Shown here in pieces: positions 3,399-9,120 of a DNA stretch of 9,120 bases. A model generated the notes under the pieces. It ran no database searches and was not told the DNA's origin. It was given only the letters and a program-made list of their open reading frames with translations. The translations under genes and the position numbers were made by a program. The stretch is from NCBI RefSeq assembly GCF_003334815.1, contig NZ_QOWO01000063.1, one strand, 5' to 3'. Source of the DNA: Escherichia coli. GTDB lineage: Bacteria; Pseudomonadota; Gammaproteobacteria; Enterobacterales; Enterobacteriaceae. Every line of letters starts with the position of its first letter. The first letter of the stretch is position 1.

Positions 3399-3499
3399 CG
3401 TTTTCTGGCACCTCCCAATCGCACGCTTTCACACTGTTGGAAAAATAGCCTTGGCTTTTCTGGCAGGCCATCCTAATGTTGGCCTCGTTTTCTGGCAGG
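3399..3499 (+). promoter_or_regulatory. Three direct repeats of TTTTCTGGCA upstream of the serine recombinase (candidate res-like or operator region)
   Basis: Core TTTTCTGGCA at 3401..3410, 3456..3465 and 3488..3497 (flanks cgTTTTCTGGCAcc, gcTTTTCTGGCAgg, cgTTTTCTGGCAgg). A small inverted repeat AGGCCA-N9-TGGCCT lies between copies 2 and 3. The last copy ends about 22 bp before the recombinase ATG. Confidence 0.4.
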
Positions 3500-3519
3500 G
3501 GTCAGATGGGGAGATAACA

Positions 3520-4080
3520 ATGGCAACTTTTGGCTACGGACGTGTTTCGACATCGCAGCAGGATACTGAGAACCAACGGCTGGAGCTTGGGCAGGCTGGG
3601 TGGCAAATTGATTACTGGTTTGCCGATGTTGTTAGCGGGAAGGTTCCGGCAATGCAACGTAAAGCATTTTCTGAAATGCTCAATAAAATCCGCGATGGTG
3701 AAACGTTGGTGGTAGCGAAGCTTGATCGTCTGGGGCGTGATGCGATTGACGTCTTGCAAACGGTAAGGGCGCTGGCTGACCGTAATATCAAGGTTCTTGT
3801 CCACCAGCTTGGTAACACAGATCTCACTTCTGCCGCTGGGAAGTTGCTATTATCTATGCTCGCCGCGGTTGCGGAGATGGAGCGTGATCTGCTGATTGAG
3901 CGCACTCAGGCGGGACTATCACGAGCAAAAGCCGAAGGTAAGAAATTGGGCAGACCTCCTAAAATCGCGTCAGAAGCCCGTAGAGAGATTTTAGAGAAAA
4001 AGAATAGCGGTTTGAGTATCAGTGCGTTAGCGCGTCAATATGGCGTTTCAAGAGCGACTGTAGCAGCTATTACCGATTGA
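3520..4080 (+). CDS. Serine recombinase (resolvase/invertase family)
   Basis: Translation from ATG 3520 (GGGGAGA SD about 6 nt upstream) begins MATFGYGRVSTSQQD with the catalytic Ser motif, then LVVAKLDRLGRD and a C-terminal HTH (GLSISALARQYGVSRATV) after a GRPPK linker. This is the classic small serine recombinase architecture. The ORF-track start at 3451 is an upstream in-frame extension without an RBS. Confidence 0.9.
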   Translation: MATFGYGRVSTSQQDTENQRLELGQAGWQIDYWFADVVSGKVPAMQRKAFSEMLNKIRDGETLVVAKLDRLGRDAIDVLQTVRALADRNIKVLVHQLGNTDLTSAAGKLLLSMLAAVAEMERDLLIERTQAGLSRAKAEGKKLGRPPKIASEARREILEKKNSGLSISALARQYGVSRATVAAITD

Positions 4081-5734: not shown

Positions 5735-6199
5735 ATGAAAAAATCCCTGAGAATACAGTTTGGCGAGCGGGTAAAAGAACTGCGCATTGCCACCGGATTG
5801 AGCCAAGAGGCCTTTGCCGATCGGTGCGGGTTTGCACGTAGTTATATGAGCAGAATTGAACGTGGTGGCTCTAATGCGTCTCTGGATGCGATTGAGGTGC
5901 TGGCTAACGCTCTGAGCGTTGAGCCGTGGCAGTTGTTAGCGCCTGGCCCATCTGAAGATAACGACTCGGAACTGTTGGTTCCATACGCAGCCGATGGTTC
6001 CTGTTTTCACCCCGGTTTGGCGAGCACCCGTGATGGTTCGTTTGGCGTAGGTGATAAAGCGGCTCAGAAGCGTTTTGGCACGTTTGCTGAAGCTCTTGAG
6101 TATCTTCGTAGCATGGAGACAGCAAAATGGCGTAGGCCTAATCCTAGCGGCAACTGGGGTATCGTATCAGCGGTTCGGTGGGACAAACTGAGAAAGTAG
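5735..6199 (+). CDS. XRE-family (Cro/cI-type) helix-turn-helix transcriptional regulator with an uncharacterised C-terminal domain
   Basis: MKKSLRIQFGERVKELRIATGLSQEAFADRCGFARSYMSRIERGGSNASLDAIEVLANALSVEPWQLL is a textbook XRE HTH. The start was chosen at ATG 5735 because the HTH then sits at the N-terminus; no good SD at either 5735 or the ORF-track start 5642, so the start is uncertain. Confidence 0.75.
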   Translation: MKKSLRIQFGERVKELRIATGLSQEAFADRCGFARSYMSRIERGGSNASLDAIEVLANALSVEPWQLLAPGPSEDNDSELLVPYAADGSCFHPGLASTRDGSFGVGDKAAQKRFGTFAEALEYLRSMETAKWRRPNPSGNWGIVSAVRWDKLRK

Positions 6200-6678
6200 C
6201 TCAAGTGTAAGTTTATGAATTTTTATGCTGTATGGATGAACAGTATTCATTAGATGCTGATAGTCTTATGTTTCATCAGCCCTTTGTTTCTATAAGAGTG
6301 AATAAAACAGCAAAATGCGGGTGCGTTACGGTGGCGTTTCGCTTTGGCTCTTAATGGCTTAATTCATATAAATAACATTGAGTTAAATAGTTATTCTGAA
6401 CAAGGTCTGCCGGGGTCTAACTGGTTTCAAAATCCGAACGCAGTGGCGTTTATTCAACGTCCACATAGCTGACAAATGTTCTTTCCTCCCGACTCGGCAG
6501 ACCTCCAGAAACATTAAAAGGCAGGTATGGCACGTTGATGTTTTATGCCGCCACGAACACTCGGTTTGATTCCGTCCAGCGGATCAAACTTAATATGTAG
6601 CCCCTAGAACAAAAAGGTCCTACGATTGCTCTCTTAACAGCTAACAGGAACGTGATTACAGCAGGTTATAGAGACTTA

Positions 6679-6703
6679 GGTTCGAGTCCGGCCTTCGGTA
6701 CCA
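6679..6703 (+). repeat. tRNA-Leu 3'-end-like sequence (T-loop, acceptor 3' strand and CCA): candidate att direct repeat / island junction
   Basis: GGTTCGAGTCCGGCCTTCGGTACCA matches the 3' end of enterobacterial tRNA-Leu(CAA) (leuX type, recalled as ...CCGGTTCGAGTCCGGCCTTCGGCACCA) with one mismatch. The upstream sequence cannot form the rest of a cloverleaf (the T-stem 5' strand is TTAGG, not GCCGG), so this is a 3' fragment, not a gene. Confidence 0.55.
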
Positions 6704-7236
6704 AGTTACTAAATTCCTTACAATACAGTTAGTTAGACGATTAAATCTGTCTCTTTTGCCTGTAAGAAATGCTCTGTTATGTCCCTTGAAAAAGCCGCTG
6801 TGGTTGATAGTGGTAATTGGGATGTTAACTCATAGCGGCGTGTCGTTCCAAGCGTCAAACACGTACTGACTCAACTTGAAAGCTATGACGTAGCCACCGT
6901 CTCTAAACAATCCCAAAACTTTTAGTGCAGCGCATTTTAGCCCGATGCCCCCATTCTGTCGCCGTCGCGAGACGCCGCAGGGGATAAACAGGTTTATGGT
7001 GGTCACGGTACTTGCAGACCATATGCAAGCTCTGCCAGCGGTTCGGCCTCGCTCCCCTTGGGTACATGGTCATCCTGATAAGCCTCACTAACTGACATAA
7101 CCCTGATGAAGTCGCAAGAGGCTCCGCTTGTTGTCTTACCACCAACGGGGCTTTATGGATTCTATTGCTTAATATATGATTGTATCAAACTTAGACTGCA
7201 TAATTTAAACGAACATAACAATCAGGCAGGGGAAGA

Positions 7237-8061
7237 ATGATAAAGCCATTTTCTGTGAGGTATGGTCATGTTGACGTTAGAGAGCATGTCCAGCTGAATG
7301 ATCTTAATTCTGATACACGCATGGCATTGTGGAATTGCTTATATCTTTTCCTTTGGACTAACAATCGTCAAACTGCTACAGCAACAAAATGTGCGCAGTC
7401 TGTGTGGATATATTATCTAAATCAACCTGCGGATAATATTCCTCGTTATGAAAGTGGATACAAAAGTGATAAGACGTTGCTGACTGCTATCCGAGATTAT
7501 ATATATGGGGAAGCATGGTATTTGGTATATGATTTAATTGAGTTCATCATTGAGAGAACTAATTCATATATTAATCTATCGAAGCATCTCAATTCCATCT
7601 TTAAAAAGCATGGCGTTGGTTATACCATAATAAATGGTTGTATTACTCCTATTTCAAATGATAACGAAATTGAAAGTGTTCAGAACGCAGTTGATAATGG
7701 CACTGATTCATCGCGTAGCCATTTCGAAAGGGCGTTACAACTAATGACGGATAGAGAGCAGCCAGACTACAGAAACTCGATTAAAGAGTCTATCTCTGCA
7801 ATTGAATCTTTATGCAGGAAAATCACGGGCAATGATAAAGGAACCTTGGGGGCTTGTCTTAAAGCTATAGAGGAAAAAGGATATATACACTCTGCAATGA
7901 AAGGCGCTTTTAGTCAGCTCTATGGTTATACAAGTGATCAGGGTGGAATACGTCATGCGCTAACAGAAGAAGATGTAAATCCTACCTTAGCTGAAGCTAA
8001 ATTTATGTTAGTCACTTGCAGTGCGTTCAGTAATTATCTGTTGTCAAAAATAAGTGATTAA
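7237..8061 (+). CDS. AbiJ-like abortive-infection protein (AbiJ N-terminal-type domain plus C-terminal HEPN-like domain), putative
   Basis: ATG 7237 with GGGGAAG SD. The N-terminus FSVRYGHVDVREHVQLNDL ... RMALWNCLY fits the FS-x-R-x-G ... LWN pattern I associate with AbiJ N-terminal domains. The C-terminal part has PDYRNSIKESISAIESL ... GYTSDQGGIRHALTEED ... AKFMLVTCSAF, typical of the linked HEPN-type domain. Family assignment is from memory, not a search. The gene is strongly AT-rich. Confidence 0.5.
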   Translation: MIKPFSVRYGHVDVREHVQLNDLNSDTRMALWNCLYLFLWTNNRQTATATKCAQSVWIYYLNQPADNIPRYESGYKSDKTLLTAIRDYIYGEAWYLVYDLIEFIIERTNSYINLSKHLNSIFKKHGVGYTIINGCITPISNDNEIESVQNAVDNGTDSSRSHFERALQLMTDREQPDYRNSIKESISAIESLCRKITGNDKGTLGACLKAIEEKGYIHSAMKGAFSQLYGYTSDQGGIRHALTEEDVNPTLAEAKFMLVTCSAFSNYLLSKISD

Positions 8062-8079: not shown

Positions 8080-8114
8080 GAGTGGGTTAGTTACCCACTC
8101 CCTTTAAAATTATT
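8080..8114. terminator. Candidate bidirectional terminator between convergent genes
   Basis: Perfect 8-bp stem GAGTGGGT / ACCCACTC (8080..8087 and 8093..8100, 5-nt loop) followed by CCTTTAAAATTATT; lies between the stop of 7237..8061 and the stop of the 8110..8682 minus-strand gene. Confidence 0.4.
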
Positions 8115-8682
8115 CACCAGACTCTAATCTTTTTTCTCTTTTCTCATCTCTCCTTTTTATTGCCAAATCGTGTTGCTCTTGCAGATACGTGCGTTCTTCG
8201 TTTCTATCGCTTGAAGTATATACGTCTGCTTTTACTTTTTTAGCTCCTTGTGCAATAGGTTTCCAATCCTCTCTTATACCTTTAATTTGTTCTGCAATTT
8301 GCGTCAATGGGCTTCTCGCTCCTAGATAACTTATTCCTTCAAATGTCGCCATGTCATACACATATTCATTTGTTTCTCTATCGTTTGATTTAGGTTTGCT
8401 TGCCCAGCTTATATTAATATTATAAATTTGATCTTTGATTTGTTCATACTTACAGAGATTGCTGGTAAGTGATTGCCCATTTTTTAACACGCTTACCTTA
8501 CTAAACGGAATCTCACTTTTTTCTCTATGCTCCGCATTTACTAGTGGAGGATCAAACACAACCTCAACATTATAGGCAGGTGCGTTCCCTGTATTAGCAA
8601 TGTTAATATCAAAGTAAAAAGCGGCCCAAGGGTTTGGCTCAAGTGTTACAACTATATGGGGTTGAGCTGATGCGTCAACCAT
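8110..8682 (-). CDS. Hypothetical protein (AT-rich cargo gene, no recognisable family)
   Basis: Start assigned to ATG 8682..8680 (MVDASAQPHIVVTLEP...). The ORF-track extension to 8736 would run into the IS terminal repeat and is therefore unlikely to be native. The C-terminal tail is Lys/Arg/Glu-rich. Confidence 0.5.
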   Translation of the reverse strand: MVDASAQPHIVVTLEPNPWAAFYFDINIANTGNAPAYNVEVVFDPPLVNAEHREKSEIPFSKVSVLKNGQSLTSNLCKYEQIKDQIYNINISWASKPKSNDRETNEYVYDMATFEGISYLGARSPLTQIAEQIKGIREDWKPIAQGAKKVKADVYTSSDRNEERTYLQEQHDLAIKRRDEKREKRLESGE

Positions 8683-8710
8683 TCTTTTTGTCTCGTCTGC
8701 TCTGAAGTGG

Positions 8711-9045
8711 TGAAGTGGTTTACTGAATTTGGCCACCTGAACAGAGGTGATATGCTCACCTCAGAACAACACAGGTGCTCCAATGAAAAAAAGAAATTTT
8801 AGCGCAGAGTTTAAACGCGAATCCGCTCAACTGGTTGTTGACCAGACATACACGGTGGCAGATGCCGCCAAAGCTATGGATGTTGGCCTTTCCACAATGA
8901 CAAGATGGGTCAAACAACTGCGTGATGAGCGTCAGGGCAAAACACCAAAAGCCTCTCCGATAACACCAGAACAAATCGAAATACGTAAGCTGAGGAAAAA
9001 GCTACAACGCATTGAAATGGAGAATGAAATATTAAAAAAGGCTAC
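8711..9045 (+). mobile_element. IS3-family insertion sequence (IS911-like), left end with terminal inverted repeat and orfA; truncated/interrupted at 9045
   Basis: The terminus TGAAGTGGTTTACTGAATTTGGCCACC begins with the TGAAGTGG...GGCCACC pattern I recall for IS911 ends, and the downstream sequence encodes an IS911-type OrfA. An extra TGAAGTGG copy sits immediately upstream at 8703..8710. Confidence 0.75.
8783..9045 (+). CDS. IS3-family (IS911-like) transposase OrfA (HTH/leucine-zipper N-terminal protein), 3' end disrupted by insertion
   Basis: Translation [88 protein letters not shown] is near-identical to IS911 OrfA as I remember it. After codon T (9044..9046) the reading frame continues into unrelated sequence. 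Confidence 0.8.
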
Positions 9046-9120
9046 TGTAGATTCAATCTGTCAATGCAACACCCCTTTCAATTATCTCTTTCGGTGTTTT
9101 GAACTTCAGTGTCTTTCTCG
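9046..9120 (+). mobile_element. Terminus of an IS30-family element inserted into the IS911-like orfA (continues beyond window)
   Basis: The sequence from 9046, TGTAGATTCAATCTGTCAATGCAACA, resembles the IS30 terminal inverted repeat (recalled as TGTAGATTCAATTGGTCAACGCAACA). The junction is exactly where IS911 homology stops. Confidence 0.5.

Follow-up and report, generated by a model that had tools for sequence, protein, structure and literature searches.

Large structured RNAs of the ROOL, GOLLD and HEARO classes reside on prophage-like elements, often near tRNA genes, and the 3' external transcribed spacers (3'ETS) of tRNAs, such as 3'ETS-leuZ, are chromosomal RNAs of about 50 nt that serve as sponges of small RNAs (sRNAs). 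Here we analyzed the interval 6200 to 7236 of a 9,120-nt stretch of Escherichia coli DNA (contig NZ_QOWO01000063.1; the whole stretch is called the window below) and found that it is the seam of two unrelated modules, which are joined at an attachment (att) core in tandem islands behind the tRNA-Leu(CAA) gene leuX. The left module is the non-coding right arm of an island of the SpLE5 family. The right module opens with a conserved non-coding unit of about 464 nt, which is predicted to fold as a structured RNA and which resembles both the large RNAs of mobile elements and the 3' trailer RNAs of tRNAs, being a member of neither.

Like the unit, the ROOL, GOLLD and HEARO RNAs are hundreds of nucleotides long and contain many helices, and their functions are unknown or were found only recently. 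The unit differs from them in matching none of the 4227 models of Rfam 15 (positions 6600 to 7260 at E <= 10), in its fixed position abutting the att core, and in its occurrence, as far as sampled, in Enterobacterales only. With 3'ETS-leuZ it shares the place directly behind a tRNA and, as we infer, the use of the tRNA promoter and of tRNA processing. Unlike 3'ETS-leuZ, it is about 460 nt long, is borne by a mobile island, and replaces the native trailer together with the terminator.

When 6200 to 7236 was searched by megablast against 5426 complete E. coli genomes, the query split at the att repeat 6679 to 6704. The entire interval is kept in 286 genomes; other genomes, including O157:H7, carry 6200 to 6704 without the downstream part, and still others, including ATCC 11775 and E2348/69, carry 6679 to 7236 without the left part, with an annotated tRNA-Leu under the first 26 bases and the remainder following it directly. 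In island-free genomes, the alignment starts exactly at 6679. The att-like repeat recognized in the initial annotation proves to be a direct repeat of the 3' end of leuX at the island edge, the very place where island-free genomes join; it serves both as attR of the SpLE5-type island and as the left edge of the second island module. It differs from leuX at a single position, 6698, which is T in the window and C in leuX and in strain 042 (GGTACCA versus GGCACCA), and this is also the sole difference from 042 across the interval. Strain 042 carries a perfect second copy of the repeat, the copies lying at 2168 to 2190 and 9482 to 9504 of the 042 locus (L001), the latter being the position of window 6681 to 6703. 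Its gene order runs from leuX through a 636-aa integrase, NIPSNAP, DUF1643, a serine recombinase, DUF4062, a membrane protein and a helix-turn-helix (HTH) gene to the interval and then the AbiJ-NTD4 gene. Since the SpLE5-type island was inserted in leuX, its right arm and the copy of the att core now part the tRNA from its former downstream sequence. ARAGORN found no tRNA or tmRNA gene in the window, in which 6679 to 6704 is just the last 26 nt of leuX. RefSeq leaves the interval without any annotation in 042 and many other genomes, and the sole Rfam match to the window at E <= 1 is a chance match to mir-230 elsewhere in the window. The features are collected in Table 1.

Table 1. Features of the interval 6200 to 7236 and of the genes that follow it, in window coordinates
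Feature	Position	Strand	Remark
Non-coding right (attR-proximal) arm of SpLE5-family island	6200-6678	+	
LexA (SOS) box-like palindrome (predicted)	6226-6245	not applicable	TGCTGTATGGATGAACAGTA, reverse complement TACTGTTCATCCATACAGCA
Two tandem 11-nt units	6323-6344	+	GCGTTACGGTG and GCGTTTCGCTT, pattern GCGTTAC(G)NNN
att core	6679-6704	+	26-nt copy of the 3' end of tRNA-Leu(CAA) leuX
Sequence directly behind intact leuX in genomes without a SpLE5-type island	6705-7236		
Conserved structured non-coding unit	6705-7167	+	about 464 nt; fold predicted
5' domain	6705-6924	+	alignment A4
5' domain helices (predicted)	6713-6722/6761-6770; 6794-6809/6823-6839; 6840-6843/6859-6862; 6887-6890/6898-6901	+	
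5' domain pseudoknot (predicted)	6851-6858/6876-6884	+	
3' core	6925-7167	+	GC-rich stretch of the initial annotation; alignment A2
3' core closing helix (predicted)	6997-7003/7138-7144	+	TGGTGGT/ACCACCA
3' core hairpin (predicted)	7011-7029	+	crossed by pseudoknot 7007-7009/7018-7020
Further 3' core hairpins (predicted)	7037-7053; 7054-7062; 6948-6983	+	7054-7062 tetraloop-capped; 6948-6983 variable
80-codon open reading frame	6903-7145	-	spurious; lies across the structured core
-10-like hexamer TAATAT	7170-7175	+	context TATTG-YY-TAAWAT; directly after the unit
AbiJ-NTD4 protein, first cargo gene	7237-8061	+	RefSeq name; PADLOC candidate single-gene defense PDC-S32, E=5.6e-104
Hypothetical gene	8110-8736	-	phrog_11802, E=7e-86

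The unit is widespread. A sensitive blastn search with 6705 to 7236 found matches in 878 of the 5426 complete genomes, among them copies at 74 to 83% identity behind tRNA-Gly (glyU) and on plasmids, and a pattern scan of one genome per bacterial species yielded about 35 true homologous loci. These cover at least 13 genera (Serratia, Enterobacter, Tatumella, Cedecea, Erwinia, Salmonella arizonae, Kluyvera, Trabulsiella, Kosakonia, Pantoea, Klebsiella, Buttiauxella and Citrobacter), all of them Enterobacterales, at 74 to 97% identity. Six viral contigs match the pattern and five of these align to the unit; no match was found among 50,697 phage records, so that a phage origin was rejected. Upstream of nearly every chromosomal copy, and on its strand, lies tRNA-Leu(CAA), tRNA-Gly(CCC) or tRNA-Thr(CGT), either whole or as a 3'-end remnant. 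Measured from where the att core stops, the unit ends after 403 to 549 nt in all 33 loci with an identified core, after 438 to 494 nt in 30 of them, and after 464 nt in the window, and homology and structure span the entire stretch between the core and 7167. Two types of 5' domain exist, leu/thr and gly, and these track the tRNA; the 3' core falls into two clades that are scattered over the tRNA types. The 3' core also occurs alone, with neither 5' domain nor tRNA, as nearly identical copies in 65 records of plasmids (IncA/C, IncF and others) from 10 genera, amid IS26, IS66 and IS21 and beside relBE or an HNH gene (loci L008, L010, L012 and L039). Rfam scans of five other loci returned tRNAs plus two weak chance matches outside the unit only. 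Searches of the literature by sequence string and by topic found no description of the unit, and a preprint on capsid-forming phage-inducible chromosomal islands (cf-PICIs) mentions no such RNA.

Gly-type units (loci L004, L006, L013, L018, L025, L036 and L038) contain an inverted copy, exact over 11 to 17 nt, of the 5' part of tRNA-Gly, comprising the acceptor 5' strand and the D arm; it lies 73 to 107 nt past the tRNA-Gly att core and scores well above shuffles. Guide or antisense pairing of the unit to the adjacent tRNA was rejected, the leu/thr units including that of the window showing nothing significant and unrestricted duplex prediction being uninformative.

The structure of the unit was scored on two alignments, A2 with 36 sequences of the 3' core and A4 with eight leu/thr-type sequences of the 5' domain. 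In A2, 95.4% of the cells are paired and seven pairs show compensatory change. In A4, the paired fraction is 85%, versus 33 to 42% when the partners are slid, and there are 12 compensatory pairs. The number of double-changed cells is 56 in A2, against 19.7 ± 3.7 in shuffles and at most 4 with slid partners, and 20 in A4, against 7.3 ± 2.1 in shuffles; none of 500 shuffles reached the observed count in either case, slid controls being 4 to 7 times lower, with the reservation that the structure was derived from the same sequences used to score covariation and that the shuffle control overstates significance for related sequences. The closing helix, whose strands lie 130 nt apart, reads TGGTGGT/ACCACCA in some copies and TGGTGAT/ATCACCA in others, and comparable exchanges are seen between CTTGCA/TGCAAG and CCTACA/TGTAGG, between GCCGCT/AGCGGC and both GCCGTC/GACGGC and GCCACT/AGTGGC, and, in the crossing pseudoknot, between GGT/ACC and CGT/ACG. 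G-U is fixed at two pairs, in 31 and 35 of the 36 sequences respectively, and on the opposite strand these pairs would be A-C mismatches. Helices vary in length and are capped by GNRA or UUCG loops, and one short helix ends in CTT, AAC, GAAA, GCAA or TTCG depending on the copy. Additionally, self-complementary extra hairpins are inserted at helix junctions in three loci (27 nt after TGGTGGT in L014, a further one in L029, and about 100 nt in the 5' domain in L044), much as expansion segments are in structured RNAs. Some helices have alternatives; for example, 7037 to 7053 can form a local hairpin or pair with 7065 to 7068. Because of the compensatory changes, the fixed G-U pairs, the capped helices of variable length and the indels described below, and by a generic criterion of covariation, these data indicate that the unit would fold as a structured RNA made from the plus strand.

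The unit is non-coding. None of the eight small open reading frames (ORFs) of the interval matches NCBIfam or PHROGs, in agreement with the initial annotation, which had called the interval mostly non-coding and its 80-codon minus-strand ORF unconvincing. That annotation had also pointed out that the GC-rich stretch differs in composition from its surroundings, as it does (G+C of 0.50 to 0.53 at 6800 to 7100 versus 0.34 to 0.43 on either side), and had offered decayed coding sequence as one explanation. For a decayed gene in this stretch speaks a minus-strand open frame of 80 to 86 codons that the window shares with its closest relatives, but the longest open frame switches strand and frame between homologues, 141 of 144 indel runs, counted relative to the window across the 36 aligned 3' cores, have lengths not divisible by three, and no protein family is matched. 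We give this explanation almost no credence. A hok/sok locus, prompted by the plasmid copy after relBE, was likewise rejected, with no significant Hok alignment in any frame and no HokD near relBE. Both the GC-rich stretch and the false ORF are explained by their location inside the conserved structured unit.

A structured RNA is not the only reading of a conserved sequence beside an att core. The unit could be the long double-stranded DNA arm of attP or attL, carrying sites for integrase, excision factor and integration host factor (IHF), and the covariation would then come from inverted protein sites co-evolving with their proteins. Like the attP arms of lambda, P4 and P2, it lies beside the core, from which its end keeps a fixed distance, and its 5' domain type tracks the target tRNA; moreover, integrases of one family (37 to 38% identity) stand beside the core or at the opposite end of the island in E2348/69, L035 and L068. 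However, known att arms are about 80 to 160 bp long and have repeated arm-type sites, whereas the unit spans 460 nt, its 5' domain has no repeated 8-mers, and the comparison of the integrase-side arm of E2348/69 with the unit gave no clear shared arm-type sites (16 shared 7-mers versus 8 expected) and no 8-mers in common that resemble such sites. About 14 distinct helices with variable loops, GNRA or UUCG caps, fixed G-U pairs and inserted hairpins are RNA-like in their covariation and do not suit a DNA arm, and neither does the shuffling of the 3' core clades among tRNA types. A DNA arm is, in our judgment, distinctly unlikely.

The fold could also belong to single-stranded DNA, as a signal for priming, replication, transfer or packaging during island mobilization. 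Strand-specific folding with G-T wobble is possible in DNA as well, the host element encodes a head protein, a helicase and an HNH nuclease, and copies of the unit are found on conjugative plasmids. Against this, the unit has no long hairpin and only ordinary stability, phage records contain no match to it, no relaxase or rolling-circle gene recurs nearby, and UUCG or GNRA caps and pseudoknots are typical of RNA. We regard a single-stranded DNA signal as highly improbable.

If the unit is an RNA, its transcription has to be accounted for. A signal scan of 6150 to 7300 found no promoter or terminator on the plus strand. A terminator is absent in 25 of 27 units by a rule that does detect the native terminator of leuX, 35 nt downstream of attR. 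Inspection by eye showed no conservation in other copies of the leader ORFs or of a boxA-like motif (6772 to 6781) of the window. As the unit has neither a terminator nor a recognizable promoter of its own, read-through from the tRNA promoter is most likely. We propose that integration of the island regenerates the 3' end of the tRNA and shifts the tRNA terminator about 15 kb away, and that transcription from the strong tRNA promoter would run on into the unit, which stands in the terminator's place, with normal tRNA 3' processing setting it free. The RNA may then act as a folded leader or insulator that carries transcription into the first, hypervariable and often defense-like cargo gene, here AbiJ/PDC-S32, across a long untranslated RNA that would otherwise be exposed to Rho. 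In this way, RNA and cargo expression would be coupled to the integrated state. Leader activity by read-through from the tRNA promoter is most likely the function of the unit, judging from its sequence and position, and an island seam followed by such a folded leader or insulator RNA is our best explanation of the interval as a whole, held tentatively and at somewhat less than even confidence.

Several points weigh against this explanation. In about a third of the loci, the neighboring gene converges on the unit, so that a leader role is not universal. The -10-like hexamer just past the unit has counterparts (TAAAAT or TATAAT) at the matching place in many copies, and the cargo could have its own promoter, for which the hexamer, lacking a matching -35, is weak evidence. 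The fold energy of 6980 to 7175 is ordinary relative to shuffles (z = -0.13 on the plus strand and +0.56 on the minus strand), and the compensatory changes cluster in few clades and represent few independent events. Plasmid copies retain the 3' core only, without any tRNA, and the tracking of tRNA and att type by the 5' domain is what a recombination arm at the DNA level would show. Finally, the strand, ends and promoter assigned to the RNA are all predictions from sequence.

Alternatively, the unit could be a stand-alone, trans-acting RNA of the satellite-like island and not a leader for the cargo gene. Such an RNA could serve immunity, helper sensing or excision control, as in the P4 CI RNA; it shares with the leader all the evidence on structure and strand, and needs no target in cis, which suits the third of the loci with a convergent gene and the persistence of the 3' core alone on plasmids. 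The 3' end of the unit even forms a hairpin, GCTCC..GGGGC, followed by TTTAT. But this hairpin fails the terminator rule, no promoter of its own was found, no target or partner protein could be identified, and the plasmid copies are one nearly identical lineage and thus no proof of selection. We consider a trans-acting RNA unlikely, with a minor yet real chance of being right. It is possible, though on the unlikely side, that the unit stands for an undescribed class of large structured RNA (about 460 nt), set by satellite-like islands of enteric bacteria right after host tRNA genes, that would be driven by the host tRNA promoter only when the island is integrated and would control or license hypervariable defense-type cargo or sense a helper phage; it would then be an RNA-based regulatory platform for defense islands.

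Comparison of the loci shows that the unit is the tRNA-proximal, integrase-distal terminal module of a second, satellite-like island family. In E2348/69, a 15-kb island is bracketed by two perfect 28-nt repeats ending in the leuX att core, and the native leuX terminator follows attR. The island starts with the unit, two small cargo genes, the phrog_11802 gene, a serine recombinase, a DEAD-box helicase and many small genes, and ends with a major head protein, an HNH nuclease, an endonuclease VII-like protein and an opposite-strand integrase beside attR. The head protein belongs to phrog_267 (E=3e-64); the scan, which covered 10 proteins, identified no terminase, portal or protease. This layout recurs in a viral contig with a 38%-identical integrase about 11 kb off, the PSJ-16 locus has an annotated major capsid protein downstream of the unit, and in L035 such an integrase stands just before a core behind which a unit lies, forming a tandem array. 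All that the window retains of the second island is the unit with the AbiJ and phrog_11802 genes, beyond which lies debris of the insertion sequences (ISs) IS3 and IS30. The phrog_11802 gene recurs on the opposite strand 1 to 1.5 kb past the unit in E2348/69 and in a Kosakonia locus and is possibly a conserved partner in islands of this family. The IS3-family transposase gene starts at 8783 of the window (8783 to 9120) and is interrupted by IS30 in 042 (11584 to 13974 of L001) and in ATCC 11775; IS3 and IS30 truncate the second island and part it from the fec iron-citrate operon.

The gene after the unit is unrelated between loci, being AbiJ/PDC-S32, an R-x4-H motif protein, a type IV restriction-like HNH protein, a metalloprotease-like protein, a membrane protein or a member of a Cys-rich secreted family. 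The arrangement is like that of the abiF RNA or ToxI in that a structured RNA would lie directly upstream of an abortive-infection or HEPN-type gene (here AbiJ/PDC-S32). It is unlike them in having no tandem repeats and no Rfam match to abiF, and in preceding unrelated proteins that include membrane, secreted and HNH proteins. With the integron platform (Pc plus attI) the unit shares a sharp 3' boundary, a hypervariable first gene and a site-specific recombinase that is often near, and it differs in that the cargo has no flanking inverted sites, some loci lack the recombinase, and the boundary motif is not repeated after the cargo; an integron-like cassette platform was rejected because a search of 7 kb in each of 40 loci recovered this motif only as isolated matches at chance level. 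An invertible cargo segment of the Hin/Gin/Pin type, served by the serine recombinase, was also rejected, as no convincing flanking inverted repeats were found in the window, E2348/69 or L037. Small serine recombinases (189 to 221 aa) are encoded both in SpLE5-type islands (3451 to 4080 in the window) and 1 to 3 kb from the structured unit elsewhere (loci L003, L012, L019, L032, L037 and L048), and no inversion or cassette sites were found for them.

We read the left half of the interval as regulatory and recombination DNA of the SpLE5-type island; it is an ordinary member of the SpLE5 family. The window island shares the backbone genes, namely the 636-aa integrase, NIPSNAP, DUF1643 and a serine recombinase, followed by cargo and an HTH gene ending at 6199, and its homologous non-coding right arm ends at the leuX attR. 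Like SpLE5 of strain Sakai, it thus combines a large integrase, NIPSNAP, DUF1643, a serine recombinase, an HTH gene and the leuX att core; it differs in its cargo genes, in an integrase cut by IS5 and in the number of 11-nt repeats. The arm is 91.3 to 91.5% identical to the O157:H7 copy, which in Sakai lies under the feature 'phage-like element SpLE5'. In strain CX07, where ETT2 type III secretion genes lie downstream, the first ~290 nt of the arm are 80% conserved and the last ~190 nt before the core (about 6490 to 6680) are unrelated to the window. Positions 1 to 77 of the window are the end of an IS5, 100% identical to the flank of an annotated IS5 transposase, and the integrase continues from 78 (to 1390), which places the insertion at about codon 200 of the 636-aa integrase gene. 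Because the integrase is broken, the left half is a fossil in the window strain, and the island copy is probably no longer able to excise by itself.

The conserved features of the arm are a LexA-box-like palindrome and an 11-nt tandem repeat, not the inverted repeats listed in the initial annotation. The palindrome sits just past the HTH gene stop. CTGT-N8-ACAG matches once versus 0.10 matches expected, and the heterology index of 6.2 falls within the 0.25 to 9.9 span of 21 E. coli sites; the plus-strand reading is weaker (index 10.0), and 0.095 equal-or-better sites are expected per shuffled window. CTGT..ACAG is retained in four diverged arm copies, one of them a plasmid fragment. The symmetry, low index and conservation together predict a LexA-box-like site. 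Exact GCGTTAC units at 11-nt spacing number one in the window (plus one GCGTTTC), two in Sakai and three in CX07, and the repeats lie at about 9124 to 9156 in L061 and at 6124 to 6167 in L060. Their spacing of one helical turn suggests a protein-binding array. The repeats occur on the right arm of the SpLE5-type island only, not on both att arms, and arm-type integrase sites could not be demonstrated in this arm.

The two inverted repeats themselves are present: GGTCTGCCG at 6404 to 6412 pairs with CGGCAGACC at 6495 to 6503, the true extent being 10 nt per arm (6403 to 6412 and 6495 to 6504), and the GTTTGAT-N12-ATCAAAC hairpin lies at 6564 to 6589. The regions 6390 to 6520 and 6564 to 6589 would be of interest if they formed a functional structured RNA or arm-type sites of the SpLE5-type island; both fold at z about -3 and lie in the att-proximal arm that is 91% conserved with Sakai. 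For 6390 to 6520, this score holds on both strands and is biased, since the stretch was chosen for its repeat, and both fold windows were picked after the fact. Dinucleotide shuffling of the interval gives P=0.11 for a 9-mer inverted repeat within 100 nt, P=0.59 for one at any distance, and P=0.48 for a 7-bp stem with a loop of at most 15 nt, so that neither kind of repeat exceeds what chance provides. The arms of the longer repeat show differences at five positions in the Sakai copy, with uncompensated loss of two central pairs. The short hairpin (6563 to 6590) is identical in Sakai, hence uninformative, and is absent from CX07, where about 6490 to 6680 is unrelated; neither stem has an Rfam match. 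The longer repeat is judged fortuitous, both are best treated as chance, and a function for either as RNA or arm-type site is very unlikely. Of the possibilities that the initial annotation had raised, structured RNA thus gains comparative support for 6705 to 7167 including the GC-rich stretch and lacks it for these two stems; recombination-site architecture holds for the true att core and the attR-proximal arm at 6200 to 6678, the named repeats not being the conserved features of this arm; and the proposed Rfam scan produced no family for the interval.

For annotation, these results mean that the interval should be treated as a tandem-island seam rather than as a single feature, and that the 80-codon ORF should not be called. 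The unit has remained unannotated in RefSeq and absent from Rfam 15 even though it is present in about one sixth of the complete genomes of E. coli, which is annotated more closely than any other bacterium. The unit flags the tRNA-proximal border of islands that begin with a hypervariable gene, one that is defense related wherever it can be recognized (PDC-S32/AbiJ or type IV restriction-like HNH), and it may serve as a practical landmark for finding new defense genes. It would possibly add a class of large non-coding RNA to a genetically tractable model organism. If an RNA driven by the tRNA promoter is indeed made from the unit, this would explain how such cargo is expressed and insulated after integration.

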